Position numbers and translations under genes: made by a program
Shown: positions 3,001-21,100 of the stretch, in pieces
How the letters are laid out: each line of letters opens with the position of its first letter
How positions within the stretch are numbered: the first letter of the stretch is position 1
The notes under the pieces: generated by a model
Seen by the model: the letters and a program-made list of their open reading frames with translations, nothing else
Told to the model about the DNA's origin: nothing
The model's database searches: none
From: an uncultured Planctomycetia bacterium
GTDB lineage: Bacteria; Omnitrophota; Gorgyraeia; 2-02-FULL-51-18; JAGOUK01
DNA length: 64,000 nt
Direction of reading: 5' to 3'
NCBI GenBank assembly: GCA_964430735.1
Contig: CAYSFB010000005.1
Coordinates: 46,390 to 110,389 of the forward strand

Positions 3001-4493
3001 GTGCCGAAACGAATCCTGTCGCGATCAACCTTTCTGCGGCAACAGGAATGACTCACGGCATTCACCGAGGCAAGATCGGCCCCGGGTCCACTCCGGGCCC
3101 GGTGAAGTACGACGGCCCTATCGGGGCTGTCTTCCAGGCCGCGGACGGATCCTGGAAAATCACCGTCACCGACAATACCGGTTCCGTATTCGTAGGTCCC
3201 ATGACGGACAAAGACAAGCAGATGTCGATTCTCGTTTCCGGAATCGTAAAATCTCAAGCGGACGCGATATCGGTCCGCGGCCTTCTGTCTGACGGTGACC
3301 AGGAGCTTGACCGGCAGGTCAAAGCCAATGGTTTGACCTGGCTTGCGCGGGGATCTTTGTCGAACCACCGTGAATCGCGCGTCACGCTGGACATCACTTC
3401 GGCCAATGTTCCTGACGCAGAACTGGCTGAAAGAGCTCTTCAAGCGCTTCACGGGCTGGACGATGACATGGGTCAGGAATCCCGCACAACTCCCATCAGG
3501 GAAGGGGAATCGTTCTCCGTTGAGCCGTTCCTGGCGCGCGGTACGGGCGTCAAGTCCGTGCGCCGCACATCGTTTTGGAAACCTGCCGGCGGCGGATGGG
3601 AACCAGTGGCCCAGGCGCGCAGGAGTTCCGACACGCGAATGTGGACCGAGCATGTGACCGATGGAGCGCACGCCTGGACCGAAGAACGCACGCTGCGCGC
3701 GATCCGGACCGATGACGGCGTCCTGCGGTACATCGACCAGACAGCATTGGACGTTGAGGTTGTATTTGAAACGTCGTCCGGCGCGCGTCTTGCGGGACAG
3801 GCGGCCGTCGAGACCGCTGAGCGCGGCGCGGAAGACTGGAAAGCGGCGATGTCGCTCTTGATGGTGTTGCGCGAGAACCGAACCGTTTCGCGGCCGATCG
3901 CGATGCCCGCAAGCCTGTTCTACTCGGATGATCGTCTGGATGCTGATTTTATTCGAATGCTCGGAATCTTTAGAACCGCATTGAGCGGGCGGACTCAGGT
4001 TTACGGCAGCGAAGCGGATCTGATGCGGTTGCAATCTGATCTTGCCGCAGCTGCCGGCTCCGGACAGCTTGTCGCCGGGATGATCGATCCCGTGGCACTG
4101 CAGGATGATCTTGCCAAACCGGAACAGATTCGCCGCCATCTGGAGACGAAGGGCCTCGGAGTTGACCCAATCTTCGTGATAGCCGAGAATGATTTAGAAA
4201 AACTGCCCTCAGGAACCGGCTCCGAGCACTGGGTGGTTCTGCCGCAAAAACCGCAGGCCGAAGTTCGCGTGGGAGGAGTTGAAGCGCTGGCCGTCGCCGT
4301 CGCCGCCAACTGGCGGGACGAAATCCTGTCGCTGTTCAGCGGTGGGAGTGGCGAGCTCTACGCGCGCGAGGATCTTAAGACGCTGTTACGGCGACCGACG
4401 CCTTGGGTGCGTTTCCTGAATTTGCCGCAACGGCTGTCTGAACTGATCGGTCAGCTGGTGCAGGGCGCTCGAATGACATCCGCTTCAGCCTAG
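3..4493 (+). CDS. C-terminal portion of a giant multidomain protein. The 5' end lies outside the window: the frame is open from base 3 and the GTG at 27 is only the first start-like codon.
   Basis: The frame is uninterrupted from the window edge to the stop at 4493 and the antisense frames are broken. It contains HEIQH (HExxH) at about 1692-1706 and a P/D/K-rich linker at about 2211-2340. SGARLAG at 3777-3797 is the same pentapeptide that recurs in the downstream giant ORFs. Confidence 0.7.
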   Translation, partial: FRNKWSRWVNDETKGALDGQRERFARALIEDLDAVEDGRQTRLIRVTRAGGLVFIDAAAARKEYPDVYKNLQQIAQKSRIPNYRESDPQSRARLLKSLRRAFEFELVEGEARRNNFRHDFNYSQERNPTPEEFSAYVNTWNDALKVHELHGHEVDRLLGHSMLWRSNYTGDELITITEITAHLISMALGRNPHGVILQTHTYTSRGTSGVGYQNIGVEVAFRLFAALSAADRNALCRASGVAAEVFLDKSKLEKLMLQNPDWTLRIANGFAAVKPAALQAAALKAYRDYVDAIEADAAKHAGKERAGKNGENTKLFGATLDAFALEMHEGKDGLDSKNTGKLLTKSLLRDPGYRQEVEKTAAELEAKFRDILREKQGEPGFNHAVRYLMARLRQFGDPDDPEVFRRFIKIMPNAHRIVKDGWTQSRVVKHFTGELQTLDGMLRAGPGTDRFASKESAAKGLPEDFEGMVDRVNRNKRTAAARIRPFAEASGIPESEYSQELDDNSCVYLSKSGFSKVDFYVEGKLQKRGSTLAYSFDSFRMLVVSTQDNPLTINDGEYEHVLNHEIQHFNIDITNEQIREGIVEILSLLNARGFGKEPQKGYHAVLQHLGSSTDYSYQRYITNLIEALRQSGNWNHEVLSYVQSTGDTSILNIHSLDSALAEVRLRGGSDAQVVLKRRNGGKDDAKPWSEVKAFARQNRKSYEQFLYSVTRRRNGTFEITETGGNIIPDRETSLDEDEDPPPADPAKKDADAKDGSDPPPGGDPAAAKPPKPDPLQTEVLFKMPFMVPGTEDDEDATEQDIAAFALKLGSDVRWDRSWRVGNARLLLLEPAKASELSIALGGAYPAGTEWAVVMDASLPDEQAVALVRFDPYALEGGFPDTGRLRIVSVLHAEQAHDTALPDEALEPSEALRALFSPVVEGGLENYRATREGQIETLLDQTWAVMNIRVAKWILNGLYTAEEINRKFENDAQMTMLALAEKYGWEPPEKIIFPAKNAKVGAETNPVAINLSAATGMTHGIHRGKIGPGSTPGPVKYDGPIGAVFQAADGSWKITVTDNTGSVFVGPMTDKDKQMSILVSGIVKSQADAISVRGLLSDGDQELDRQVKANGLTWLARGSLSNHRESRVTLDITSANVPDAELAERALQALHGLDDDMGQESRTTPIREGESFSVEPFLARGTGVKSVRRTSFWKPAGGGWEPVAQARRSSDTRMWTEHVTDGAHAWTEERTLRAIRTDDGVLRYIDQTALDVEVVFETSSGARLAGQAAVETAERGAEDWKAAMSLLMVLRENRTVSRPIAMPASLFYSDDRLDADFIRMLGIFRTALSGRTQVYGSEADLMRLQSDLAAAAGSGQLVAGMIDPVALQDDLAKPEQIRRHLETKGLGVDPIFVIAENDLEKLPSGTGSEHWVVLPQKPQAEVRVGGVEALAVAVAANWRDEILSLFSGGSGELYAREDLKTLLRRPTPWVRFLNLPQRLSELIGQLVQGARMTSASA

Positions 4494-4515
4494 CGGGAAT
4501 CCATCTGAGGTTATC

Positions 4516-4544
4516 GTTGAACGCTTAAAATGCTGGCATAAACT
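4516..4544 (+). promoter_or_regulatory. Candidate sigma70-type promoter for the TPR lipoprotein operon (-35 TTGAAC, 17-nt spacer, -10 TAAACT).
   Basis: TTGAAC at 4516-4521 and TAAACT at 4539-4544 sit in the 84-nt gap between the giant ORF stop and the next start. Confidence 0.3.
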
Positions 4545-4577
4545 TACTTGCGGCCAGAGAGGCGAGACAAAGTGCGT

Positions 4578-5360
4578 ATGAACAGATTAAAAAAATTTGA
4601 AATAAATCATCTAGAGCAGTGCTGGCTGATGGTGGCGCTGATCTTGATGGGGTGGCTTCTTGCTTGTTCCGCGATCGCCGCAGAAAGCCAACCGCCCGCA
4701 ACCGCAGCCGAAAAGCAATCCCCGCCGCAGGAGGCTTCCCAAAAAACCTCTGAAAAGGCATCCGAACCCCGTCAATCCATCCAAGAACAGATACAAGCCA
4801 TGCATTCCCGTCTCCACCGGCTCGTTCTGGAGCAGAAATACGTCGAGGCGATCCAGGTCGGCCGCAAATTGGTCCGGATCAAGGACCGGCTTCCGTACGC
4901 TCACAATGACATCGGCCACTCCTATTACATGCTCGGCAATTTTCCTGCGGCGCTGGAGCATTTTAGAAAGGCCGCGATTTACGAATCAACCAAGCTCGAG
5001 TTCAAGACCAATGTCGGCATGGCGCTCGAGGCACTCGGCCGTAAAGACGAAGCGGAAAAAACCTACCGCGAGGCCGCGGAAGCCGGCCATCTTCTGGCGC
5101 GGGTGCGTCTGGGCCGGCTCAAGTACGCAGCGGGCGATTTGCAGGCTGCAGAAAAAGAACTCAGTCTGGTTTTGAAGCAGCAGCCCAAGCACCCCGGCGC
5201 GCTGCAGCAAATGTCCCGAATCCGGTTTTCGCAAAAAGATCGGACCGAGGCGGCCCGGTATGCCCGTGAAGCGATCGATGCCGGATACAGGGGCTTCAGC
5301 CGTAACTATCTCGTAATGATCGGCCTGGCTGATCCTCCCAAGCTTCCGTCTGCCAAGTGA
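4578..5360 (+). CDS. TPR-repeat lipoprotein. An alternative upstream TTG start at 4548 is given by the ORF track.
   Basis: Translation from the ATG at 4578 gives MNRLKKFEINHLEQCWLMVALILMGWLLAC, a signal peptide with the lipobox LLAC. It is followed by a Q/P/S-rich linker and TPR-like helical repeats (YAHNDIGHSYYMLGNFPAALEHFRKA; NVGMALEALGRKDEAEKTYREAAEAG). The stop overlaps the next start as ATGA. Confidence 0.55.
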   Translation: MNRLKKFEINHLEQCWLMVALILMGWLLACSAIAAESQPPATAAEKQSPPQEASQKTSEKASEPRQSIQEQIQAMHSRLHRLVLEQKYVEAIQVGRKLVRIKDRLPYAHNDIGHSYYMLGNFPAALEHFRKAAIYESTKLEFKTNVGMALEALGRKDEAEKTYREAAEAGHLLARVRLGRLKYAAGDLQAAEKELSLVLKQQPKHPGALQQMSRIRFSQKDRTEAARYAREAIDAGYRGFSRNYLVMIGLADPPKLPSAK

Positions 5361-7291
5361 TGATCCCGGCACTGGGATCGGATCTGCGCTCCAGAGCCTC
5401 GAATCCGGTTTGCTGGCTCCTCCTGGCGGCGATCGTCTTGCTCGGGACCTGGCTGCGCCTGCTGCCCGTCCTGTCGGTCCCCGAATCGGACTACCTGGGC
5501 GACGCGGAATTCAATTACCGGATGACGCGTGAGGTCGTCCAAAGCGGCCGCCTGCCGGAAGTGGACCGTTTGTCCACCCATCCCGTCGGCAAGCACGTTT
5601 CCCGGGAGCTCCCGGTGTTCCATTACCATCTTCAGGCGGCCTTCCATCACGCGGCCGCGCTCGCCGGCCGGGACGATCTCAAGCAAAACACCTTCCTCTA
5701 CAACGCGCTTCTGGGCGCCCTCATTGCCATCCCGGTCTACATCCTGACGCTCGCGTTGGTCGGGTCGCGCCAAGCCGCGCTCATCGCAGCGCTCATCGCC
5801 GTGATCCTGCCCATGGGAATGATCCGATCCTTCAGCGTCTACAACCGTCAGGAGGTTACGGGCGTGACGGCCGGACTGCTCGCCCTGGCCCTGTGGATCC
5901 GCGCCTGCTGCGAACCCGGGGATCGCCGGTCCCTGGCGTTTTCCGCGGCTGCCGGCGCCGCCTTCATCGCGGCGTTTGCGAGCTGGCGGATGAACCTGCT
6001 GCTTTTCCACGTGATATCGGTCATTTTTTTGCTCATGGCAACCGGGAACTTTGCGCACAAGCGCCAGATCGCCCGCGGAATGACGATCCTGTGCGCCGCC
6101 TATCTGCTCTCCTGCATCGGTCTTGAGTATCTGCGTCATTACCGCGTCATCTTGTCGGCGGAGTCGGCGTTGACGTTCGTGACCCTCGTCGCTTCCGCCT
6201 TTGTCTGGAAAAATTCCAAACTCACGATGACGTCCGCTCAAAAATGGATCTATCGGGCTGCGGTGGTCCTCGTTCTTGCGAGCCTGACATGGCTTTTTAT
6301 GCGGTTCGGCATGCAGACGCCCGGATCGGGCGTCGCGAGTCTCTTGGCCATTGCTTTGAGGCAGATGGGATATCCCGTCAGTCTCACGGACGAGCAGAAT
6401 CTTTATTTCACCAGCGTCGAGCTGGCGCCCATGCCGCTTGATTCGCTGTTCGGCCCGATGCGGCTCGGCTGGATGTCGCTTTGGCCGCTCGTGTTTTGGG
6501 TTCGGCCTTTCCGCATCCAGTCCGAACGACCGCAGTCGGGGTATGCGTGGGCGGTATCCGGACTTGTGACGGTGGTCGCGCTGGCGGGCACGCTGTTGGT
6601 CGCCTCCCGGAATCAGGTTTTTTTTAGCCCCATGTTCGCAGTGTGGGCAGGGATCGGGGGCTGGCAGACCGCGCAGGAACTGCGGCGGCAGATCTCCGGC
6701 AAATGGCTGACGGCCGCCGCCGTGGCGGTGATGACGGTCTTTATCGGCGTCGCCGGATATCACGCATATGACATTATGAAAAACTTGAATCCCAATCAGC
6801 TGAAACGAGACGATTCCTTCAACGATATCCTCAAATGGATCCGAAGCGAGACCGAGCCGAATGCCGTCATCTGGGCTCATTGGGCGCACGGCTATCCGAT
6901 CCAGACGCGCTCAGAGCGGGCGACCATCCTGGACGGCCTCTTTGAAGTTCCGGAAATGCGCCGCCGGGTCCTGGAGGAAAAAAGCGTGGTTCGGAGCGGG
7001 GACCCCCAAAAAATCTTCGATTTTTGCAAAAAGTACGGAGTCAGCTATGTCCTGGTCAGCATGAACCATCTCCCGTCCTATCGAGACCGCCGCATGGACC
7101 GTGACGACGTGCTGGACCGGATTGTGCTTCAGCACCCGGAAAAACTCCCGTTTTTTGAGACACTTTTCCGTAATGAGCGGTTCGTCTTTTATAAGTTTAA
7201 TCCGATCCGGGAGGCCGAGAGGGCCCAATCACAGGGGGGCAGGACTCGAAGGTCCACTTTTGAGTATTTACAGACTGCCGGTCCGCAATAA
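5357..7291 (+). CDS. Polytopic GT-C family membrane glycosyltransferase, STT3/AglB-like (oligosaccharyltransferase-like).
   Basis: The N-terminal half has about 11-13 hydrophobic helices. The first lumenal loop carries D-A-E-F-N-Y-R, which resembles the STT3/AglB DPYFNYR motif. The C-terminal soluble part carries IWAHWAHGYPIQ, a degenerate counterpart of the WWDYGYQI box. The start overlaps the upstream stop (ATGA at 5357-5360). Confidence 0.5.
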   Translation: MMIPALGSDLRSRASNPVCWLLLAAIVLLGTWLRLLPVLSVPESDYLGDAEFNYRMTREVVQSGRLPEVDRLSTHPVGKHVSRELPVFHYHLQAAFHHAAALAGRDDLKQNTFLYNALLGALIAIPVYILTLALVGSRQAALIAALIAVILPMGMIRSFSVYNRQEVTGVTAGLLALALWIRACCEPGDRRSLAFSAAAGAAFIAAFASWRMNLLLFHVISVIFLLMATGNFAHKRQIARGMTILCAAYLLSCIGLEYLRHYRVILSAESALTFVTLVASAFVWKNSKLTMTSAQKWIYRAAVVLVLASLTWLFMRFGMQTPGSGVASLLAIALRQMGYPVSLTDEQNLYFTSVELAPMPLDSLFGPMRLGWMSLWPLVFWVRPFRIQSERPQSGYAWAVSGLVTVVALAGTLLVASRNQVFFSPMFAVWAGIGGWQTAQELRRQISGKWLTAAAVAVMTVFIGVAGYHAYDIMKNLNPNQLKRDDSFNDILKWIRSETEPNAVIWAHWAHGYPIQTRSERATILDGLFEVPEMRRRVLEEKSVVRSGDPQKIFDFCKKYGVSYVLVSMNHLPSYRDRRMDRDDVLDRIVLQHPEKLPFFETLFRNERFVFYKFNPIREAERAQSQGGRTRRSTFEYLQTAGPQ

Positions 7292-7560
7292 AGGCCATGT
7301 AAGTAATTCAAAATATAGATATTGAGGCATTCGACCTATAATTTAGTAGACAAAAAATATAAATATCTCTTCCTTGAATTAAACAGCACGGACCTGTATA
7401 CTTCTCATAGTTACGGGGGTAACTGGGGGGATCCATGTCATCTTTTCAATTTGTCGTTCTATCATTTTTGTCTCGGTGATTTGTTTTTTTCCGATCATAT
7501 TTAAAAAATTTGATTAAGTAAAAGTACAAAGATAAAAAAGCGATTCAAAGAAAGATAAGA
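7292..7560. promoter_or_regulatory. AT-rich intergenic island upstream of the 10.3k-aa gene, a likely promoter/leader region.
   Basis: About 270 nt of strongly A/T-rich sequence sits in otherwise ~64% GC DNA, with poly-A/T tracts and several -10-like hexamers (TATAAT at 7337-7342, TATACT at 7397-7402). Confidence 0.5.
7375..7402 (+). promoter_or_regulatory. Near-consensus sigma70-like promoter (-35 TTGAAT, 16-nt spacer, -10 TATACT) about 160 nt upstream of the giant gene start.
   Basis: TTGAAT at 7375-7380 and TATACT at 7397-7402. Confidence 0.35.
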
Positions 7561-9100
7561 ATGACCCTTCAACGACCTGGATTCAAACTCCTCGTGAAGA
7601 TCGTCGCCTCGGTGACGGTGGTTACCTTTTTCTTTCAGGATGTTGTCATGGCTACCGGCGGCACACCGGTTTGGAAGACGACGCCCGTCGCGCTGTCTGC
7701 GGGTGAGCGCGGGGCCGGCAAGCAGGTCCCCGAGGTCTCGGCCTCGCTGGGGGTGAAGCGCAGCGAGCATCTTGACGGCGAGGCCGACGAACTCATCGTC
7801 AACATCCAGGACGCCCACTCCTCGATCGGCGCGCAGAAGGCCGCATCCAAAATTTTTGCCGAGCTCGTCAGCCAGTACGACCTCGACGTCATCGGCGTCG
7901 AAGGATCCTCGGGCGCGATCGACACGAGCCTCGTTTCCGCCTTCCCGGTCAAAAAAGTCCGCGAATCGGTCGCAGAGTCGCTGCTGCTCAACACCCGTAT
8001 CGGCGGGGCTGAATTTTTCCAAATGATCTCCCAGGACGACGTCGAGCTCGTCGGCGTCGAGGACCCGGAGCTCTATCAGAGCAACATCCGCGTCTACCAG
8101 CGCCTCATCGCCGATGAGCCGCGCATCCGCAAGGCGCTCTCCGCGCTCAAAGAAATCCTCACCGCTCTTGAGCAGTCGATTTATTCCCAGGAGCTGCGCG
8201 ACTTCCGCCGCCAGCGCCTTCTCCACGAGTCGGGCGACCTCAAATTCACCGAGTACTGGCATTTTCTCAAAGCGCTGGTCGTGCGTTCCGGTCTTTTGAC
8301 CTCCGGACGGCCCAACCTCGAGAAGCTGATCCGCACTGCGGAGCTCGAGGATGAGATCGACTTCAAGTCCGCCACCCGTCAGCGCGACCTGCTCGTGAAA
8401 GAGCTCAAAACCAAGCTCTCCGGAGACGATCTTGCCAGCCTCGTCAAAGAAGCGGTCCGGTTCAAGCTTGGCAAAATCACTCCCGGCCGTTTCCACGCCT
8501 CTCTCGTCGAGCGCGCCCGCGACGCCGGCGTCGACCCGGTCGCCTACAAGGACTTCATTCTGTATGCCGAGTACGCGGTTCTCTACGAATCCATCGACTT
8601 TCTCCGCGTCTTTGAAGAAATCGCCGAGCTCGAGACGCGCGTCGAGGGGTCGCTGCTTCGCAAGACCGACGAACGCCGCCTCGCCTCGCTCGGCCGCACC
8701 GTCGACATCCTCGCGAAGCTGCTCGAAGTCAAGCTCACGAGCTCGGACGAAGCCTTTTTTCTGAACAACCGCGCGATGTTCGAGCCGGCGGCCCTGCAAG
8801 CCGCCGTCGAGGAGCTCGCTGACGAGCGCGGCATCGATGCCTCCAGAATCCATTGGAGGCTCCTGGCATCCGAAATCCCCGCCGCCGAAAAGTTCTACCG
8901 CCTCGCCAAAGAGCGCAACGACGCGATGCTGACGAATCTGACGAAGCGCATGCGCGAAAAGGGCAAGACGGTCGCCGCGCTCGTGACCGGCGGTTTTCAC
9001 ACCGAGGGGCTCTCCCGCCTCATGCAGGAACGCCGCGTCTCCCACGTCGTTTACATGCCCAAGTTCGATCCCAAAGACGGCGAGCGTCCCTACATCACCG
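7561..9100 (+). other. Conserved N-terminal module shared by the three complete giant proteins (family unknown, possibly Tiki/TraB/GumN-like).
   Basis: It aligns block by block with the N-termini of the ORFs at 38719 and 47149: IQDAHSSIGAQ / IQDAHTNESGQ / IQDAHTNASGQ; VIGVEGSSG / HVFTEGADND / HVFLEAGSGDD; LVGVEDPELYQ / LIGVEDEELYD / LWGVEDPALYA; and LVTGGFHTEGLSRLMQERRVSHVVYMP / LVTGGYHTPSLKRMLKDKGISYVSIMP / LVAGGYHAPNLKRLLRESGVSYVSILP. Confidence 0.6.
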
Positions 9101-12100
9101 TGATCACGCAGAAGGGCTCCTTCATCGACGCCGAAGTGCGCGCCGAGGCGCAGCTCGAAGCGATGGCGATGGTGCTGGCTTCCGCAGTGAAGGGCGGGCT
9201 CAAGTTCGAAGACGCGCGCCGCATCTGGCTCGACAGCTTCGCCGCGGAACAGAAGGTCAAAGGCATCCAAATTCCCGAATGGAGCGACGCGGACCTCGCA
9301 AAGCTCGTGGACGGGGCGCCGTCTGCCGTCGAGTTCACCATCACGTTCGACAAGAACGGCATCCCGTCGGCGACCGCTTTGAAGATCGCCATCTCCGACT
9401 ACAAACGCCGCGCGGCGCTGGCCCGCCTGAGCAGCGCCGAAGCCCGTCAGGCCGAGACGCAAAAGATGCTCGAGTCGCTCAAGGAGTCCTTGGCGGCGGA
9501 CGACCGCGCGTCGACGAATGAGAACGCCGCGGCCATCGTGATCCGCGCCAAGGAACGCTTCCTCGTGCAAATGGATTTGACGCGCGACGCCGCCGTGCTT
9601 GAGCGGCGCTGGGAGGCCGAGTGGGCGGATGCGTACATGAGCGCCCTGCGTAAAAAGGGAGTCCTGACCGCGGACACGCTTCCTGTGGAAGAAAAGTCCG
9701 CCTTCGACGCCGAAGTTGCCCGCGCCAAAGACGAAATCCGCTCCAAGCTTCAAATCCGCGTCGCCGAAAAGCACCGTCTTGACGGCGACCGGCAGCTCGC
9801 GTCAGCGTCCCGCGGAACGGCCCAAAGCCCTGAAGCCGCGACCGCCGCCGCGGGCAGCTTTGTCGCCCGGGTCGACGCATCCCGCCTCGCCGCCGGAGCG
9901 CGGCTCGCCGTGATGGAACGAGTGGGGAGTGCGGTCAAATTTTTGTTCCCGTTCCAGGCGGGCTCTGCGCCTGCCGACGCCGTCAAGCCCGAACCCGTCA
10001 AACCTGCTGCCGTCGAACCCAAGATCCTGGACTCCAAGCCGCGCCGGGCTCCGAAGCAGGCGCCGAAGCAGGCGCCGGTGAAGAAAAAGGCGGCGGCTGA
10101 ACCGGAGTTGAGCGGGGCGGAGTTGCAGCGTCTGGCCGTTTACGAAGCCCGCTTGGTCGGCAAGGTGCCGGCGCAGACGCTCGAACGGCTTCGGTCGAAG
10201 CCCGTGCTGGTGCGTCAAATCCTGTCCCTGATGGACCTCAAGGCCGGCGTTAACGACGCCCGCGTGGCCGCGCTTCGCCGCAATTTCAAATCACAAGGAT
10301 TCGCCAAATACACCGGCCCTTTAACCCGGTCGCTCACGCTCCGTGCTCCTCCGGCTGCCGAGAAGCCGGGTTTGTTGACCCGCATCACAAAATCCCGCTG
10401 GATTCGGGCGGCTGTGTTCGTAATTTATATGCTTATGCTTCCGGTTACGGCCGGGGCTCAAGGTTACGGAAGTTGGAATTGGTCGAAAGCCAAGCCCCAC
10501 GGCGATTTTCCCAGTCTGTCGAGCCTCAGGGGGCTCGGATCCTTCAATAATGGCGGTAATACGGATATTGTCGTTCCGAACCCGGGTCCCGAGTCTGTCA
10601 GGGTCATGGCCAGTCAGATTGACGCTTTGGAAAACGCCGCCTGGCGGATGAGCCAAGAGACGACGCGCAGTGCGGTGCAGGATGCCGCCTTTGCGGGCAT
10701 GCAGGCCGAAATGGACAGGAGCATGGTGCACACCCGTGTCGCCGATCTTCTCTTTAATTCGGCCCGGTTCCCGATCGCCACGTTCGGCTACGGGGACGTG
10801 GTCCGGCTGACGACGACAGACGACAACGGCGTGATTCTCAAGCTTCGCGGCCGCGATCCGCTGGCGTTTAAAATCGCCGTTCTCAGCCGGGTGGGCAACA
10901 AGGTTACCGGGCGATTCGTGGTCACCGATCCCCAGGACGGCAGGATGCTGATGGCGCCGGATGATATCGTCATTGATCTCTCAGACCGCGTCATGAAGAT
11001 CGAGTCGGTCGGCGGCAAGCCCGTCCGCAATGTTTATCCGAACGCGCCGACTCCGGTCATCAATCAGATGCGGGCCTTGTGGGAAGGCCTGGCCCCCAAG
11101 GTGAGTGAGTTGGCAGGCGATGCCTGGAGTCCGGCGGAAAAAAAGGCCCTCGCGGGAGACCCTTACCGGGATATTTTTGCGGTCAACACGGTTCGCGACA
11201 TCATCGGGGTTTATGAGGGCTTGGATCGTACGATCCGGTCCGCTGTCGAAAAAATGGACAAAGTTGGTATCGGCGGAACGGGCGCCGGAAGCGATGAGTT
11301 TACGGCGCAATTCGTTCAGAGCGTGCTGGAAAACCGCATGGAGCTCGCCGCCGCGACCCATCTGCGGCTTCAGGCTGATCTCGCGCGCGTCCAGCTCCGC
11401 ATCCGTGAGTTGGAACAGATCCAAAAGACCTCCGGTCTCAATCCGGACCAGGCTGCCGAGCTCGAGGCCCTCAAGGGGCCGGGTTATCTGACGCCTGAAG
11501 CGGGGGCGGCGATCCGTCCATTCGATGACAAGTCCGCGCCACTCGTGACACTGGGCTCGCTGACCCTTCAAGAAAAAATCGCAGCCCTCTCACAGATCAA
11601 TCCCGTGATCGGCGACTACGTGGATGCGGGCGGCACTGCCGATCGGTTCGCCGGCGTGACGGACCAGGCCCGCGCAAGAATCATCGCCTCCCATCCGTAC
11701 TTCCAGACGATGCGGGTGCTGCGGGACACGGATGCCTCCGGAAATGACCGTTACCAGCTCTTCACCATGGGGCAAAAAAACTTGGCCGCACTCGTCAAAG
11801 GAATGGAGGGTCTTCTCAAGCAGGAGGCGAACTGGCTCCGCTCCCTGAACCAAATTATTGCCGCTAAAGTCATCGACCCTTCGACGCTCGAAGGTCAGAT
11901 TCGCGCCGCCAGCCAGGATGAGCTGATCCGTCTTCTGCAAGACAAGCGGACCGGTCCCATGGCCATTCTGCTTTTCAGCAGGATGATCTCGCGCGGGGAT
12001 GTGCCGGTTGCGGCGCTCGAAGCGCTTGCGGAGAAGATGCAGAATTCCACCGACGAGCGTTGGAGGCTGTACTTCATGTTTATGGGATTGTCGATGCTGG

Positions 12101-15100
12101 AGAGCGTCCAGGAATCCGGAAGCGAACTCACAGGCTCCCAAAAAGCGATGATGGAAGCTGCTGAGCGGATGCTGACCCGAGCACGCGAGCAGCGCTCCCG
12201 CGAAGAGGCCAAAAGGAGCTCGGAACAGCAGGCGGCCCAGAGCGGCAGCCGCGAGCGGCAGCCCGTTTTTACTCCCTACGGTCACCGGTTTGCGAACGAC
12301 CCTGCCCGCGAAATCGTTTCGGCGCTGGCTCAAAAGCCCGAAGCCGCCAAAAAAATCGCCGATGCCGTTTGGAACGTGAATCTTAAAGAGGCCTCGCAAA
12401 TCGCTCTGGAATCGTTTCCCGAGCATCCCAAGCTTGCCGAGTGGATCGAAAACCTGAAGGGGATCTCCGGCGCCGGTGACGAGGTGTTTGTGGAGAATGT
12501 GTTCAAGTCGGCCAGATACATCAACGGACTTTTTGCACCGTACATGCCTGGAAGCATCACGGCCGAAGTGCTGCATATGAGCAAAGTCCGCATCGTCCCC
12601 ACCCAAGCAGTCGCCAAGTACGAGCTGCCTTTGGGGATCGGTCGCTCGGCGCACGTCGCCGAAACCCGTTACCAGGAGGGAGCCGCCGCTCCGATTCCTT
12701 CGAGCCCCTTTGTCGCCGTGCTCACGGGCAACGAAATCACGGGCGGCGTTTATGCGGGCGATACGAATCTGGACGCAGCGAACTTTTTGGCCCATGTCAT
12801 CTGGAATACCGCGATCAACCCCGATCCGGCCGCACGCGCGGCATGGGAGAAGGCCGAGAGGGGGATCCTGTATAACGCCGATGAAGAAGAAGCGGAACTC
12901 CAGAAAAAGCTCCTCCAGAGGAACTTCGCCGGCATGTCCCTCGAAGATGTTCAGGACCTTGTCCTGGCCACTCTTAACCGGCGGCAGGAGATCTTTTCGA
13001 TACGCAGCGAGATTGGTATGAGCTACGTGGATGAGGCGACCGGGCTCCAGGATCTGACCTCGCTGAACCTCATCGGTGTCGTCGAGGGCGTCACTCGGGA
13101 CGGACGAACCGTGCCGACCTCGGACCTGGCGGTGGTGCTTGCCATGCGCGATCTATCGGATGGCAAGGTCGGGAATTTGGGCGATCGCAGGATTCGAGTT
13201 TATGCGGGTCCCGACTCCTATCGGATCGTTCCGGTCAACGAGCAAATTCTTGTGCCGCTCGATCTTTTGGCCATTCCGGAAGGGAATATGCCGGCATGGA
13301 CGCAGGAATACGAGCCGCTGTTCGGCGCATCCCCGAGGGAGCTGTCGCGACGGACGGTTGCCACGCTCGCGAAGACCCTGTACCTCGACGGACAAAAGAC
13401 AACCGAAGAGGCGTGGAGGTCGACCCAGGCAAATGCGATTTATGCCTTTGAAGAGGGGCTCAAAGCGGGCGGTGCGTACGACAGAGTGATGCGCGGCAAG
13501 TTCGGGGCGGATATTCCCCAAATCCCGAACCGCGAACTTTACTCGGCGTCGGCAACGATGTTTTTGGTTCATTCGGCCGTGGCGCATATCGCTTCCTCCA
13601 AGCCATCTCCATCGGATGTCTATGACGCATATTATTGGCAGAAGGTTTTTTCACAGCAGCCGGACCGGCCCTTTACGGCCAGCCCTAACCAGCTCAACGA
13701 CCTGGTCCGCTATCTGGCGCGGGTCACGCAGATTAATTTGCAAAAGAACAATTTGGATCCTGGTCAAGACTTGCGCGGGATGAGTCCCGGCGTATGGGCG
13801 CTCGTGCTTCCCGAATTGATCGATTTGCCCGGAATAGAAGCTTACGGGCCGTCGTCCGGTTCCAAGATCTACTTCGACAGGTCGAGCGGTTTGGCCAGGG
13901 AGGTTCATGCTTGGAAGTACCAGCCGGGCACGGGGATCCGGCTGATCGTACCCAATCGCGTCTGGCGTGCCCTGGAGCCCAACCCCCGCGAGCTGGAGTG
14001 GGGCCAAAAAACATCCGAACGGACATCCGATCAAAAGGAATCAGCACAGGCTTCCGAGGGCGGCGAAAAGCAGCAAGGCGGGACGGGCCGCAGCGGCGCC
14101 TCCGATCAGAGTTCGGGTACAAAACAGTCCACCGGACAGTCGGAGTCCACAGAGAAGTCGGGTCAGGACGATCGATTGCCCGTGATCTGGGAATCGACTG
14201 GCAATGAAGCCGGTAACTCGACAGCGGGCCCGGATCAGGCCGCAAGGACCCAGGCCCGCCCGGCCTTGGCCGGAACTTACGAGCCGGGGACGCCGCTCGG
14301 TGATTTTGTGCTGACCCCCAGCGTCGCTCAAGCGCTGGAGGTTCTTGAGGCGGTCGAGCTCCATAAACTAAAGGACAGCCCCACCGGTCTAAATCTGCCT
14401 CCGGACGGCAAGTTGACCGAGGAAGACGAGAAAAGGTATAGGCTCATTTTTTCCGGAACGACACCGGACGCGGTAGTCACAGCGGTTCAGAACGGCGACC
14501 TCACGCTGGCACACATCGAAGCGCTCGCGCAGGCGCTGGGTCTTCGCGAGGGCGAGGATGCTTCTCGGGATCCGTTGCGTGTGGGAGGGAGCTTCACGGA
14601 TGTGGATGTGGCACGGATGAATGCGGTGGCGAGAGAGCTGCGCAAAGCCGTTGCTCCCCTGGACGCCAAGCACAAGGTCATGGACGGCCGTTTCACCGAC
14701 TTCAAGCAGAATCTCGAGAAGGCCGCTCGAGACCGCGCCGAGGCGTTAGCCGGCACGGACGAAGATTTGTCGGCTGGCTTTTCTGACGCGGCGGATCAGA
14801 TTCGCTTCGCCGCCATGGACGCGAAGGAAAAAGCGGGATTGGACGCTACGACGATTCAGATCCTGCAGGGCAACACCTCCGTCGAGACCATGGCTTACCA
14901 GCTCACCGCGCAGGGCTGGACCTACGGATTGGGAATCCGTTTCAATCCGATTTCAAATAAATGGGAGCCCATCGCCGGAGCTGAGCTCCGGTCGGCCGAT
15001 CAGCTCGAAGGCCAGGACACCGGCCGCCGGTCCGATGTATACAATCTGTTCGCGGGTAACAAAATCATTACGCTCACCGGGTTAAGAGAGCTGTATCAGG

Positions 15101-18100
15101 CTGATAAGATCGCCCAGGTCAATCTCGATTTTATCAACAGCATGCTGCCCGGTTGGATGGATTTGGGACGGCAGGACTTCGACGGCCTCTCACCGGATCA
15201 AATCTTTTTTGTGATCGCTGAAAAATTCGAGGTGCAGCATCGGGTGATCCTCACCGCTCCGGCACTCGAAGAACTTGCGCGGCTGGTCCGGGAGCGGAAG
15301 AATCTCGAAGAGCGCGTGAATACCGGCGGTCCGATCAATAGAGGCATGGTGTTCAGTGCTTCCGCGGGAGATCCATATACCTTCTTGATGGGCGAAGCCG
15401 AGCGTGTTCGAGGCAAGGTTCGGGAAGCGGGCGATGCGTTGAGGCGCCAGTACCAGATGCCTTTTACCGCCGGCAGCGAAGAGTCGGACCGGAAGCACCG
15501 GCAAACACAGGAAGCGTGGACGAATCCGTCTCCGGCGGAAGCACGCTTAAAGGAGCTGCAGGCTCAGAACGCTCTCTATACCGGTGCTTATTTTGCACAG
15601 GTGCAGGATGATGCGACCGTCTTTGTCCGGCCGGCGGATATCAAGGATACCTATGCCAATCTGGAAGGTTCGCCGGCGTCCTGGACCATTCTGCTTCGGC
15701 AGATCGTGCCGGCTGCCGCTCTTGACCCAAATGCGGGCAAGCCTTGGGCACCCATGTACCGCGAGCTTCGGGTGGAGCGCGACCGGTTCGGTGTGCCGAC
15801 GGGCCGGGCGGCCGAAATCATCCGCGAAGTCCCGCGCACGAATCCGGATCAAATCGACTCCTTCGTAAAAAATATTGCCGTGCCGTCCGCGGAAGAAATC
15901 GCCCTGCAGCGGCAGTGGGCCGATGCGGCCGCCAAAGTGGCTCTGGCAAGCTTCAAGCGGGACCGTGTGACGACACCAAAGTATGAGCCGACGCCCCAGA
16001 CCATCGATCCCGCGATTTGGTACTTCTCCAATCCCAATTTGCGCCCTCACATCCAACCCGCGTCCGCGTCAGACTCCCAATCTGTGAAGCAGGCGGACGC
16101 GGACCTTGCGCTCGCGACGGAGGCATACAACGCAGTCTCCCGTTCGCTCGGAACCTTTGCAAATCGCAAGTCTGTGGCGGAAGTGATCGGGGCTCAAGGC
16201 GTCGAATCCTGGCACGCCTCGGCCCGGCGCAGCCGCGAGGAGCTTGAGAGTCAGATCCGGGCCGCCGAAGAACCGGTCCAGCGTCCAGCTTCGGCAACCA
16301 AGCGCATTCCGACCGATGTCGCTGCCAAGTCCGTCCAAACAGCAGTCGCAAAGCTCAAGACTTCGGAACTCAATAAGGCACACGACCAGGCCGTTGCGGC
16401 TCTGGAGAAATATCAGAAGTTCGTTGCCTCCATGGCTGTTTCGGATCCGCGCCAGGGCGCGTATCTGCTGGGCGAAGATGTGCCCGGGTATTGGGTCCTG
16501 GACAACCAATCGAACATTGGCGAATGGATGACCGAAGAGCAGCTCAAATCCAGGTTCCCCGATTCGGACCCCGCTCACCGCCAATACCGGAATCAGATCG
16601 AGGGCCGCCCCTCCCAGACTGTGATCGGCGGAACCACCATCATGTATTTTGGCAATTACCGTCCACCGCAAGACGAGGTGAAGCTTAACCACTTCGTTCT
16701 CGCCGACCCTATCACCGGCGAACGGGAAGCGTTTTATACCCGCAGTCAGCTGGCGGCGCTGGCGGATGAGGACGCGGCGAAGCCCGAAGCGGAGCGTGCC
16801 GGATGGCACGATGCCCGGAAGGCGCTGGACGCGGGAGAGAATGCGGTCCTGCTCCCGGGCAACAAGCTGCTTGTGACCTTGGCGTCCAAAGCGACGCTTT
16901 TTACGGATGCCGAAGGCCTGCCGCAGCTTCGCATCCAACCGGTGGATGCGGGTCCGCTCAAGGTCGCCGATCAGAAGATGCTCACGTCCATATCATCCAT
17001 GGAGTATGCGCACGAATCGAGTACCGCGCATTTGGAGGAATTGGCCGGCAAGCTTGCCGCAGTTTACAGCACCGAGTTGTCGATCGGTCACCCGGGATCC
17101 TCTGTCGTGATCGGCGGACTCAAGACCGAGGTCCGTGAATTCGGGACGTTCGCCGGTTACGTCAGCACCGACTATATGAGTTATATCCCGATTTATCTTC
17201 AGACCGGTCCGAATCTTGAACTGATCGACGTTGTCGGCACCGTCGAACGCGTTCCGGGTAAGCGCGGCGAGCCCAAAGGGTCCGCCCAGCACTTCAAGAT
17301 CGCCGGTCCGCTGGAACCGAATTACCGATTCGTCACTCCGAACACGGCAGAGGCCACTCATTTTTCCATTACTCCGGTGGCCAATCAGCCCATCAGCCTG
17401 CAGTCTCTGACCGATGGTTTGAGCATCGGACGGGACGTTTTGAATCCCATCGAGACGGCACGGTTGCGGTTGGCAGGACTTTCTCACGGACCGAGAACGG
17501 GCGCATTCGTCATTCAAGGTGTGGCCAGCGTCCACAACCCCGGTCAGCAGATGGAGACGGGGACCAACGGACCCAACGCGGTATGGCAACCTCCTGCGGC
17601 GGCAGACGCAGCGGGAGGCCAACAGGCCATTTTCCCCGGGGCTTCCTACTCCTACTCCATCGAACGGATGCGCGAGCATCTGATTCCGTTTACGACCACG
17701 GCTGAACAACTTGAAGTGAACAACAGGGGCAGGGTGGATCTCTTCGGCGGTGTGTACATCGCGAGCAGCGGCAATTATGGGGCAGCGCCCGTCGGCTATT
17801 CGGGACATCCCGCCGCTGAACGCGCCTTGAATGCGAAGGAACTCCACTATCGTCAACTGATGCAGCTTGCAGCGCAGTCGCGGGATGCCGATGTCAGCCG
17901 GCATCTCCGCGGGTTTGCGTACAGTCCGCATGTCATCCTGCCCGAATCCGTTTATGGCGGTATTCCCAGTTTTGTGACGGTCGAGCTCGGCCTGCACCAG
18001 ATCGCGGAACAAATGCGCGAGTGGCTCAGCGCGAATGGCGGACTTCGGTCTACGCATCAGGAATTTGTGTTGTCGACCCCCGACGTTGCGCTTCAGGTAA

Positions 18101-21100
18101 TCGCCCAAATCCGTAACCGGCAGGGCAAGGCTATACCTTCTGCTGCCAAGCCCGCCGCCCAGCCTTCCGTCCAACCGGCCGCCAAACCCGGCGTGAAGGA
18201 CCAGTCGTACTTTAAGGCATTGGAAGAAAGGGCTTGGGGCTCTCTGACGATCCAGCAGAGGGACGATCTCGAGAATTATAGACTGCGCAACAAAATCAAG
18301 GCTCCCTTCACGGCCGTTTCAAATTGGATCAGAGGCTTCGCTCGGGATGTGCGCAACAACCCGACCGCTATGTCCTGGAGGGAAGACGACGGTGCGGTAA
18401 GTCCGGACGAATCATCCGCGGCCACCGGCGCGCGGCTCGCCGCAACCGAAGCGACGGCGGACCAGGCCGCGCCGGAAGCGACTCAGTCGTCCGGGGTTTT
18501 CGGCGTTCCCCAGTGGGTGGTGCGGAGAATAGCCGACTCATATATGCGGGTATGGAAGCAGCAGCAGCGATACGCCCAAATGCTGCAGGACCGCTCGGGA
18601 GAGACGGCACTGCGCGAGGCGTGGGACCGCGATGCGCTCCGGGGAAATGCGGTGGATCCGCTGCTTCGGATGGCTTTGGATCAGAACGACGATCCCTTTG
18701 AAGTCCGCAAGCCGATCCGCTTCTTCGGCGTGATCGTCCGGACGGACAAGGACGGCAAGACCGCCTACGAAACACTGAGGGCCGGGGATTTGGCGCGCAT
18801 CGAAGCCGATGCGGAAACGGGCAAGTTCTATATCCGCAAGCGGCAGGGCAAGACTTGGTTGAACCAGGGTTACGGCACCGTTTACTTCAACGATTCGGCC
18901 CGGATGCTCTATGACCGGATCGGATTCCGGAAGGTGACGGAAGCGGATTGGAATCGGTTCGTCAGCGCCGGCAGCTTCGGGGCCGTGGCATCGCAGCAAA
19001 AAACGTCGACGGAATCGGATGCTGCCGCACCTACGGCCGCAGCCGCCGGAACGAGCGACCAGCACAAGACTCTTCTTGAGATCGATGCCGAAACCAACGC
19101 CCGGCAGCTCGCTGCGGTGAAGAGCTTCTTCCGCAAGGCGGTCCAACAGGTGTTCGGCAACCGCCTCCTCAGGGCCGTTTTGACCACGGGCCTGATGGGC
19201 TTGGGCCTCATCCACCTTTCTTCCGCGTTCCTTCAGGCAGCCGCTCCGGATAGGGACAAGGCCGTCGCCGCCTACACGGCTGAATCGGTCAAAAACCCGA
19301 CCAAGCTCACAGCCAGCCACTACACAGACCCGCGCTACAGCCATATTGCGTTTAATTATGACCAGATGATGATCGCCAACACCTTCCTCGGGTCCGGTTA
19401 CACGGCGGAAGGTCTCCAGATCCTCGACTATTATCTTCCGGGATTCGAAGGCACCGCCCCGCGCGGCGCCGTCCGCGACTACAAGGGCAGCAAGATGCTG
19501 GTGAATGCGGTCAACGTCCGGACAGGCCGCGAAGACCTCGAGTGGCACATCACGCCCGGACCCAACGCGTTTGCGGTCATGTCCTACCTCAAGAGTCATA
19601 ACGCGGCGCTCAAAGCCGGCGATCCCGTCAAGGCCGAGCGCTATCTGAAGGCCGCGATCCAGATCGCTGAAGGACTCATGAAGATGCAGGCCCCGGACGG
19701 CGGATACCGTCACGGAACGGCGAATCCGAAGAAGACGGCTGCCGAGCCGCATTCCGACGTCATCGCGGCTTTGCAATGGCTGGAGAAGACTCTCAAGTCC
19801 CGTCCCCAGGATGCCGCAAAGAAAGATCTGATCGCCCGCATTCACGAGTCCGTCGAAGGATCGGCCGACGGAGCGAAGCCGGGCGCCAAGCGCTTCTTCC
19901 TCAAGCATCTGTATGACCGCGAAAAGGGCATCGTTTATCAAGGGTACGAGGAAGGCAAGGGCACCAATTTTGACGAATCGCTCGACACGCTGTCCTGGTT
20001 CCTGATGACACCGTTCGGCCAGTCGCTTCCCGACGCAGACATCAAAAAAATCACCGATACGATGCTTCGGAAATACGTCACGAAGGTCCGGTACAACGGC
20101 CAGGAGATCCTGGGCGGTGACTTTGCCGACTCCAGCAGCCCGGTCGTAATCGACCGCCGCGACGGCAAAAAACCCATGATCTCGGTTGAATGGACTGCCG
20201 GCATGATCGGTGCGTTGCAGGTCGATGCGGTCCGCTTCAAGGATTCGGATCCCGTGCTGGCGGCTGAGTACAAGGCCAAGGCCTTGGTGCTTCTCGACGA
20301 GCTTGGAAAAACCTTCAGCCAGTACACCGACCGGCAGCTGGATGCGGTGATGGGACCCTATGCGACTGCGGGAAATGTTCTGGTCGCGGTCGATGGACCC
20401 GGATGGCTCACGCCGCGAGGCAACGGGAGCGCGATCGCAATCTCAATCCTGAATGCGATGGTTGGACATAACTTCTTCACCGGTCAGTTGATCGAGGGAT
20501 TTGATGGCATCCCGGTGACGCCCGACCAGATGACAGCCGCCCGCGCCAAGCTGGACGAGTTGGCCGCCCCGAGAACCGAAGCGGCGCCGGGCCAGGCTCC
20601 TGTCAGGGCTCCGGCTCCAGCCCAACCGGTCCAGGTCCAGCCCGCCCAGGCGCAACCGGTCCAGGCTCCCGTCAAGGCTCCGGCTCCGGCACAGCCCGCT
20701 CCCGCCGCCGGGGGCCGTCAAGAGGAAATCAAGCTTCCCAGGGTGCAAAATGCCCCGGGCCCGAACAACGAACGCGCCGAGTACTACGATTTGGATCAGC
20801 CGATCGAACTTCAGGCGAACGATCAAATCATCATTGAATACACGAGCCACACTCCCGGCCGGCAAGTGGGTTTGCAGCTCGTTCCGAGCAAAGCCCGCGC
20901 GGACGCCCATAAGGACGTCATAATTTACGACATCACGCCAAACAACGATCCGCTCATTTTTACGGCACCGGGACGCGTTCGATTGGAGCGCTTGGCCTTC
21001 CAGTACGGCGATCTGCCGTTCGGATTGAAGAAAAACGAGATGCCCAAGAACCGTCCGGATGGAGAAAACCGTCCGAATGGATCCGATATCAATGTAACCC

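Follow-up and report, generated by a model that had tools for sequence, protein, structure and literature searches.

In the C-prM-E-NS1 polyproteins of the Flaviviridae, internal signal sequences are cleaved by host signal peptidase, and in polytopic membrane proteins start- and stop-transfer sequences are inserted sequentially, following the positive-inside rule. The MARTX toxins of bacteria contain a TIKI-family endopeptidase module, RRSP, and TIKI-superfamily enzymes include site-specific endopeptidases (PMC6254334). Giant proteins of the phylum Omnitrophota have been described in two preprints: in text searches, the 2023 preprint was found to go no further than suggesting that the giants might be split into shorter polypeptides by C39/S8 peptidase domains (10.1101/2023.11.21.568195), and the 2026 preprint discards internal signal-peptide calls as chunking artefacts (10.64898/2026.06.07.730766). 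A search of the literature for polyproteins with internal signal peptides in bacteria found no pertinent work. Here, a stretch of 64,000 nucleotides (nt) from an uncultured Planctomycetia bacterium placed by GTDB in the Omnitrophota (assembly GCA_964430735.1, contig CAYSFB010000005.1, positions 46,390 to 110,389 of the forward strand; hereafter the window) was analysed. Its + strand, to which all positions below refer, carries three giant open reading frames (ORFs) in tandem: G1 (7561-38484; 10,307 amino acids (aa)), G2 (38719-47136; 2,805 aa) and G3 (47149-59361; 4,070 aa). Deep inside G1 lie two hydrophobic segments, seg1 and seg2, and the sequence comparisons suggest, on balance, that G1 is a modular, probably processed precursor in which both segments act as internal start-transfer export signals of the Sec type, with the N-terminal side cytoplasmic and the C-terminal side outside.

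Two internal signal-like segments in G1

Both segments lie exactly where the original prediction, made from the sequence alone, had placed two Sec-like elements. Seg2 (NRLLRAVLTTGLMGLGLIHLSSAFLQAAAPD) occupies positions 19159-19251 (aa 3867-3897) and has positional equivalents in homologous proteins. Its n-region is RKAVQQVFGNRLLR, with four Lys/Arg in the 15 residues ahead of the core and two after it, and its core, AVLTTGLMGLGLI, consists of 13 uncharged residues with a Kyte-Doolittle (KD) value of 1.92 and is broken by Pro or His. Over 19 residues the hydrophobicity is only moderate (KD19 1.61), and the segment contains a His. The sequence NARQLAA that had been noted ahead of this segment is present at 19096-19116 (aa 3846-3852), 20 aa before the core; it resembles the border motif GARLA described below with a one-residue insertion, which the gapless motif profile cannot score. 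Directly downstream, at a distance of 10-30 aa, seg2 adjoins an (alpha/alpha)6 barrel, a six-hairpin glycosidase/epimerase-like module at 19285-20550 (aa ~3909-4330).

An exhaustive HMMER search of 1.84e9 representative proteins, in which the query was a chimera of G1 aa 930-1500 and aa 3840-4400, gave 50 matches; all of them fall on the module that follows seg2 (G1 aa ~3909-4286), and the seg1 half of the query has none. The AlphaFold2 model, built from an alignment of 23 homologues, has a mean predicted local distance difference test score (pLDDT) of 86.8; the barrel exceeds 90, and the seg2 stretch upstream of it lies at 37-60. In a Foldseek comparison with the PDB, the barrel matches GH76 alpha-mannanases, mannose isomerase, AGE-type epimerases and the GH8 enzyme BcsZ (E 3e-7 to 1e-5), with a TM-score of up to 0.65 on the target and an identity to the structural matches of 9-15%. 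The module has no Pfam match, a PDB sequence search with it gave noise only, and a word-indexed homologue search with G1 aa 3700-4500 gave no match. At fold level, the model confirms the putative glycosidase module that had been proposed right after seg2 as six-hairpin glycosidase/AGE-epimerase-like, without an assignable glycoside hydrolase (GH) family.

A comparison of the barrel homologues places seg2 where other members carry an export signal. In 12 complete stand-alone homologues, an N-terminal Sec signal peptide ends 30-60 aa before the conserved PSH anchor of the barrel, and in about 12 multi-module homologues an internal segment stands at the same offset, with a basic n-region, a core of 9-14 residues and an AxA-type end, as in ...SSPVAIRHQLIGAITALSLLWGTVVPSANA↓LE and ...KKLLILAMLTGVLGNGLSAIA↓APP (the arrow marks the predicted cut). 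These internal segments have little sequence identity to one another. Two of the barrel homologues, P0019 and P0031, share the N-domain of G1. When the n-, h- and c-region (n-h-c) organisation with a small-x-small site was scored, 11 of 12 internal segments before the barrel passed, compared with 63 of 243 (26%) of the other internal peaks of hydrophobicity across these protein sets. Three homologues (P0009, P0002 and P0003) contain just two hydrophobic segments, the N-terminal signal peptide and the internal one, and P0017 is built alike but lacks the internal one; read as a stop-transfer helix, the internal segment would thus leave in the cytoplasm a module that is otherwise exported. The comparison strongly suggests that seg2 is the G1 copy of an export signal that travels with the barrel cassette, whether the cassette stands alone or is fused.

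Seg1 (KSRWIRAAVFVIYMLMLPVTAGAQG) occupies positions 10390-10464 (aa 944-968). Its n-region is KSRWIR, with four Lys/Arg within the 15 residues before the core and two after it, its core AAVFVIYMLML consists of 11 uncharged residues (KD 2.67; broken by Pro or His), and it ends in a predicted cleavage site, P-V-T-A-G-A↓Q-G, which is a canonical small-x-small site (AGA↓QG). Upstream, a very basic spacer (9910-10401, aa 784-947; pI 10.9) separates seg1 from the GARLA motif at 9895-9909 (aa 779-783), a module border. These 164 residues have a net charge of +19, of which the last 50 contribute a net +9, in a protein with an overall net charge of -67. Such a flank is expected to be cytoplasmic, so that seg1 reads as N-in/C-out.

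Segments similar to seg1 occur in two relatives. In L080, a close relative with 45% identity in the N-domain, ...SKILRSKTFHIAVFTSIASILAPLVAFA↓QQ stands at aa 890, 35 aa past a GGRLA, and in L038 a similar segment, ...RRPTVIRSSLWRTALISFLFAVFFGPISAFA↓QQ, stands at aa 717. A local alignment of G1 and L080 around these segments scored no better than shuffles, and the segments of L080 and L038 appear to be analogues of seg1 in position and form that are not alignable. As a signal peptide, seg1 is moderately supported, by its intrinsic features or by analogy. The prediction that both elements resemble signal peptides rather than generic transmembrane (TM) helices agrees with the offset that seg2 shares with the Sec signals of its homologues and with the N-in charge signature of seg1. 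Both segments have the basic n-region and a core within the roughly 7-15 residues of a Sec signal peptide, shorter than a TM helix; the small-x-small site is canonical in seg1 and weaker in seg2.

Taken by themselves, single-sequence statistics make a weak case. Seg1 and seg2 are the only 19-residue windows with a KD mean of at least 1.6 between G1 aa 31 and 6830; composition shuffles of the same region contain on average 4.3 such windows against the 2 observed, so that by hydrophobicity alone the segments do not exceed chance. A loose rule of the n-h-c/AxA kind lacks specificity (68 internal matches in family proteins, 46 in shuffles and 10.8 per 10 thousand aa (kaa) in ordinary ORFs) and served for comparison only. 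A strict rule, with at least three Lys/Arg, an n-region without acidic residues, an h-region of at least 10 residues and a small-x-small site, picks seg1 only, with 0.10 matches expected per shuffle. Crude insertion-energy sums for seg1 and seg2 (+3.4 and +2.5) are similar to those for N-terminal signal peptides (+3.6 and +3.5) and unlike those for the TM cluster of G1 (+0.9 and +1.3). What speaks for seg1 and seg2 as real features is the comparison with relatives and not the statistics of the single sequence.

A second multi-module family shares the barrel (P0002, P0003, P0005-P0009, P0014, P0021 and P0045). Its members are characterised by a 'WVNLSP' domain at the N-terminus and a 'VGGIDL..LDLQIKRDG.G.PLP' domain at the C-terminus, and their border motif is [AS]SP[IVL] (15 seen, 3.9 expected). 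Most [AS]SP[IVL] sites have a signal-like segment within about 20 residues downstream.

Topology, border peptides and the N-domain

Along G1 the elements follow one another in the order signal peptide, GARLA780, seg1, GARLA3624, seg2, helix 6833-6851, GARLA6899, TM cluster, GARLA8091 and enzymes. The helix at 28057-28113 (aa 6833-6851) is of the stop-transfer type, with a positive C-flank (RRIKKLLEPRK), and is followed about 50 aa later by the GARLA at aa 6898-6902; the cluster of strongly hydrophobic TM helices spans 28993-31725 (aa ~7145-8055). Both seg2 and helix 6833-6851 agree with the positive-inside rule. Flank charges were compared in 16 proteins of the family in which an N-terminal signal peptide is recognisable and one or more hydrophobic segments lie inside the chain: the first internal segment has the more positive flank on its N-terminal side in 10 proteins and on its C-terminal side in 2, a bias that is the opposite of what simple alternation predicts.

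Internal signals of other types are also present in these proteins. In G2, a signal resembling those of the twin-arginine translocation (Tat) pathway follows directly after an AARLA (41842-41955, aa 1042-1079; TNINRRQFLIDATKAAATTVVASQILRTTPVQA↓EE): aa 1047-1079 contain N-R-R-Q-F-L, a mildly hydrophobic h-region, a basic c-region and a predicted VQA↓EE site, so that the features of a Tat signal are all found, at an internal position. Similar internal twin-arginine motifs occur in L046 (aa ~3482) and in P0041 (aa ~205), the latter before a barrel-type module, and P0006 has an internal lipobox (..AGMICLGG↓C) before a barrel-type module. Such Tat-type and lipobox signals are not interpretable as generic anchors.

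In the 175 kaa of sequence from the family, the peptide [GA]AR[LM]A, referred to as GARLA, was counted 76 times where 2.4 would be expected, a ~30-fold enrichment at module borders. It has a strict core and loose flanks and is not a DNA-level repeat, in that the peptide is conserved and synonymous codons vary. The eight sites of G1 lie at aa 779, 3623, 6898, 8090, 8797, 9529, 9964 and 10152; that at aa 3623-3627 corresponds to positions 18427-18441, and the further ones to 28252-28266, 31828-31842, 33949-33963, 36145-36159, 37450-37464 and 38014-38028. The last, SARLA at aa 10152, scores far below the other seven. Sites are found in G2 at aa 564, 975, 1043, 1250 and 2453 and in G3 at aa 561, 1868, 2380, 3158 and 3378. 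Several sites stand just upstream of recognisable modules, and two paralogous G1 segments open with GARLA-SEERVDLLDENG and GARLA-QVEMVDVLDEAG, the first followed by a Pfam NUDIX domain. From this pattern, GARLA is likely to be a site of processing or recognition. A search of the literature for 'GARLA' yielded surnames only.

At their N-termini, the proteins of the family (G1-G3 and L001-L082) carry classical signal peptides whose c-region, F[FL]xQ[DE]hxFA↓xP, is unusually conserved, a hint of a dedicated recognition step in addition to generic Sec export. The signal peptide of G1, of the Sec type, spans 7561-7653 (aa 1-31, ...FFFQDVVMA↓TG), and those of G2 and G3 span 38719-38790 and 47149-47241. 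After this hydrophobic N-terminus, G1, G2 and G3 share an N-domain of ~500 aa that defines the family and resembles TIKI enzymes and erythromycin esterases (7654-9240, aa 32 to ~560, in G1; 38791-40428 in G2; 47242-48858 in G3). A scan of GTDB species genomes with the N-domain alignment found 78 loci, mostly in metagenome-assembled genomes labelled as Omnitrophota, the others in genomes labelled as Elusimicrobia, Planctomycetia or unclassified; a metagenome scan added 4 closer relatives with 32-45% identity, and a word-indexed homologue search with the N-domain of G3 gave no match. The invariant elements are QDxH, E, GVED, R and GGxH, in addition to a large helical insert, and in the aligned G1 segment D26, H28, E56, R394 and H422 are invariant in 44 sequences and E109 is nearly so.

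The Pfam matches of the N-domain are all sub-threshold: ChaN (PF04187) in 11 of 44 members (best E 3.7e-4), PF05139 (Erythro_esteras; E 4.8e-4) and, in G1, PF01963 (TraB_PrgY_gumN; E 0.013). Its AlphaFold2 model has a pLDDT of 74, and the top Foldseek matches, all with low TM-scores, are EreC (6xcq; E 0.076, prob 0.87), Bcr135/136 and HopBA1. These matches make the N-domain a probable hydrolase of the TIKI superfamily and a candidate protease. The helical insert (positions 138-269 of the profile alignment) gave weak PDB profile matches to calmodulin/centrin-like proteins (E 0.004-0.07), which are probably spurious; an EF-hand-like pair would be the less probable reading.

With seg1 and seg2 read as start-transfer signals, seg2 would send aa ~3897-6832 across the inner membrane and helix 6833-6851 would return the chain to the inside, and seg1 would export the region from aa 967, with the very basic aa 784-947 staying in the cytoplasm. 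Three consecutive N-in signals (the N-terminal one, seg1 and seg2) would be incompatible with an unbroken chain, so that a cut would be expected, most likely at the [GA]ARLA borders, and the conserved TIKI-like hydrolase domain would be the obvious candidate for the protease. Fragment 1 would then be exported by the N-terminal signal peptide; fragment 2 (aa 784-3627) would be targeted by seg1, its basic tail being kept inside; fragment 3 (aa 3628-6902) would be targeted by seg2 and re-anchored by helix 6833-6851; fragment 4 would be a polytopic membrane piece, and the remaining fragments would be cytoplasmic enzymes. Seg1 and seg2 themselves may be removed by signal peptidase or retained as signal anchors, seg1 looking cleavable and seg2 less so. 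Observed are the sequence features, the conserved position, the fold of the module, the enrichment of the motif and the asymmetry of charge; from these we infer the membrane orientation, the proteolysis at GARLA, the identity of the protease and the cleavage by signal peptidase. The first three GARLA-delimited fragments hold exactly one start-type signal each, an arrangement that, with two segments, is not significant by itself.

More tentatively, and with a probability that we place clearly lower, the giant ORFs may form a bacterial polyprotein system. Either the TIKI-like endopeptidase at their own N-terminus or a partner protease would cut them at [GA]ARLA (in the sister family at [AS]SP[IVL]); this would release cytoplasmic enzymes together with pre-proteins whose signals, of the Sec, Tat or lipoprotein type, become usable only once the cut is made. 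The suggestion that the giant ORFs are strings of independently exportable cassettes is strongly supported for seg2 and moderately for seg1, and goes too far as a general statement, since most GARLA-delimited modules have no signal and are nucleotide-dependent, cytoplasm-type enzymes.

Points against and alternative explanations

Several observations weigh against reading seg1 and seg2 as export signals of a processed precursor. By position, neither is a conventional Sec signal peptide: both are internal (aa 944 and 3867) in one continuous ORF, the nearest strong GARLA lies 164 aa (seg1) and ~240-243 aa (seg2) upstream instead of adjacent, and after cleavage at GARLA the segments would still be 164 and ~240 aa from the new N-terminus. 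No strong degenerate GARLA was found next to either segment (the score of DARVA899 is 3.1 bits, and true sites reach 15 or more). Across the family, hydrophobic segments directly after GARLA are not enriched (5 of 91 sites, 3.1 expected, p = 0.2); a signal directly after the motif occurs in a few proteins (GARLA-RNTVKR-VFLISISVFVLAAGGAYWW at L061-1853, as well as L035-682 and L039-3740). Many family members, including L081 and L082, are without any GARLA.

In seg2, the AAA↓P site is blocked by Pro at +1, leaving the weaker LQA↓AA or SSA↓F as alternatives. The seg1 region has no homologue in 1.84e9 representative proteins, 5.8e9 clusters or metagenome contigs, nor did a word-indexed search with G1 aa 651-1250 give a match. 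Assignment of the N-domain to the TIKI superfamily stays below threshold throughout; this candidate protease domain has its own signal peptide and would be exported, and most GARLA sites would be cytoplasmic. Export and cleavage are, moreover, deduced throughout from the letters of the proteins. Finally, an alternating topology (signal peptide in-to-out, seg1 out-to-in, seg2 in-to-out, helix 6833-6851 out-to-in) also fits the number of segments and places the barrel outside.

This alternation is the basis of the alternative that survives best, an unprocessed polytopic protein, in which seg1 would be a stop-transfer helix (N-out/C-in), aa 967-3866 a cytoplasmic loop, seg2 an uncleaved start-transfer segment and helix 6833-6851 a stop-transfer segment, the small-x-small sites being incidental. 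In the classical sequential-insertion model, the role of a hydrophobic segment is set by its order, and here the count is right, with the barrel outside and the nucleotide-dependent enzymes of the C-terminus inside. The aromatic belt of seg1 (W947; Y969, W972, W974) and its 26 consecutive uncharged residues suit a membrane helix, the first internal segment of L081 is clearly of the stop-transfer type, and a published DeepTMHMM survey classes such Omnitrophota giants as signal peptide plus TM (10.64898/2026.06.07.730766). However, the +19 stretch just before seg1 would have to cross the membrane and lie outside, and the 10:2 bias of the family runs the other way. The conserved AxA ends and the internal Tat and lipobox signals are left unexplained, and the barrel would be cytoplasmic in P0009, P0002 and P0003.

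The enzyme modules also bear on this alternative. Pfam detects no domain in G1 aa 1-8000, followed in the C-terminal part by NUDIX (aa 8126-8262), GT5 (starch-synthase; aa 9022-9270), GT1 (aa 9321-9448) and guanylate kinase (aa 9632-9780) domains. G2 contains guanylate-kinase-like and GT5/phosphorylase domains, and G3 GHMP kinase and Glu/Leu/Phe/Val dehydrogenase domains; both proteins have an N-terminal signal peptide without a convincing TM helix, yet carry enzyme domains that need cytoplasmic cofactors (ATP, NAD(P)). G1 places modules homologous to those of G2 and G3 after a TM cluster, and in unprocessed chains the membrane would separate the kinase and GT5 modules of G1 from their homologues in G2/G3. 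A consistent polytopic topology, which had been named in advance as the outcome that would overturn the signal-peptide assignment, thus agrees with the number of segments and is contradicted by the flank charge of seg1, the AxA sites and the family bias, and we regard it as a doubtful explanation.

A considerably less probable explanation is that the segments are relics of signal peptides from fused genes, or helices buried in the cores of soluble domains, with no present targeting role. It would accommodate the shuffles, in which hydrophobic windows are at least as common as in G1, the moderate hydrophobicity, the His and the Pro-blocked best site of seg2, and the orphan, fast-evolving middle of G1. 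The n-h-c/AxA form is, however, kept in about 12 independent multi-module homologues despite their little identity, which indicates selection; seg2 is modelled with low confidence upstream of a confident barrel, and both segments follow low-complexity linkers and basic flanks.

Internal translation starts that would yield separate pre-proteins from in-frame codons just before each segment (GTG at aa 3853, giving M-KSFFRK..., and aa 3864; ATG/GTG/TTG at aa 884-939) are very improbable, because although the genes of the window are mostly without a Shine-Dalgarno sequence anyway, neither a Shine-Dalgarno sequence nor an A-rich leader was found near the segments, the lowest G+C in 60-nt windows there is 0.47 and 0.57 compared with 0.17 in the true upstream intergenic region, and in many homologues the stretch from the border motif to the signal contains no start codon. 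A search for internal promoters likewise gave no support.

Neighbouring genes and comparison with known systems

The window has a G+C content of ~0.60, and a gap of 270 nt directly before G1 is AT-rich. The middle of G1 (aa ~540-8000, positions ~9180-31560) is orphan: a tblastn search of G1 against the 78+4 related loci found no similarity past aa ~540-666, though the N-domain is 43-45% identical, which implies a conserved head with very fast turnover or mosaic exchange of the downstream modules. Cysteine is nearly absent from the three proteins, with 2 residues in G1, 1 in G2 and 3 in G3.

Upstream of G1, the + strand encodes a TPR protein with a hydrophobic N-terminus (4548-5360), then a polytopic Dpy19/PMT-like glycosyltransferase (5357-7291; PF10034, E 1e-8); these two may be glycosylation partners of the exported modules. 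At the left edge, an ORF listed at 27-4493 has no in-frame stop before nt 27 (3-4493 in the window). A GARLA lies in it at nt ~3780-3794, and Pfam finds no domain; the ORF probably encodes the C-terminal ~1,490 aa of another, fourth giant protein cut by the edge of the window.

Giant Omnitrophota proteins are at present read as single chains with a signal peptide as well as TM helices, which puts enzymes dependent on ATP or NAD(P) on the outside of the cell, a paradox that both recent surveys note. Internal export signals linked to modules, a sharply conserved border peptide and a protease-like N-domain would offer a testable way out, in that the giants may be precursors whose parts belong to different compartments. 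If confirmed, this would be a gene organisation and a mode of protein sorting not described in bacteria; it would change the use of topology predictors and domain catalogues on very long proteins and would supply concrete cleavage sites to seek in existing proteomes. If the polyprotein reading is true, one gene would supply several cell compartments, which would be a categorically new sorting system.

Among the closest described proteins are the Omnitrophota giants ('Archaeovorins' and other long proteins; 10.1101/2023.11.21.568195, 10.64898/2026.06.07.730766), which belong to the same phylum as judged by homologue taxonomy. As in G1, a signal peptide stands at the N-terminus and TM helices are scattered along the chain; sugar metabolism is represented by modules (starch synthase, GT1), epimerase/glycosidase-like barrels emerge only from structure prediction, and the localisation of metabolic enzymes is paradoxical. 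The Archaeovorin/dockerin-type class differs in its defining SecA_DEAD, TSP3 and peptidase domains: a Pfam search at E <=0.01 on all of G1-G3 found no SecA_DEAD, TSP3/dockerin, C39 or S8 domain. A text search of the 2026 preprint (10.64898/2026.06.07.730766), limited to the terms 'polyprotein', 'cleavage' and 'internal signal', with GARLA not searched, found none of them. The MARTX toxins resemble G1 as giant multi-module bacterial proteins whose modules are released by cutting at short Leu-containing motifs, as would be the case in G1. They differ in type I secretion, in a cysteine protease domain that acts inside the host cell, in the absence of an N-terminal signal peptide and of internal Sec/Tat signals, and in a cleavage site that is not GARLA.

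Tat signal peptides are resembled by G2 aa 1047-1079, L046-3482 and the motif of P0041, which differ from them in being internal instead of N-terminal and which are distinct from seg1 and seg2. With the flavivirus polyproteins, G1 has in common a long precursor with several internal n-h-c signals that carry small-x-small sites, would start translocation downstream and alternate with stop-transfer helices, and possibly a dedicated protease whose target is a short motif on the side of the cytoplasm. The viral system belongs to the eukaryotic endoplasmic reticulum, whereas G1 and its neighbours lie on a bacterial chromosome, use Sec- and Tat-type signals, contain modules of thousands of residues and would undergo a putative cleavage. 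As in polytopic proteins, flanking Lys/Arg orient the segments, and seg2 and helix 6833-6851 would form a classical pair of in-to-out and out-to-in segments. Unlike polytopic proteins, G1 has three consecutive predicted N-in signals, conserved c-regions of the signal-peptidase type and loops of ~2,900 aa, and one of its signals is the positional equivalent of the N-terminal signal peptide of stand-alone homologues.

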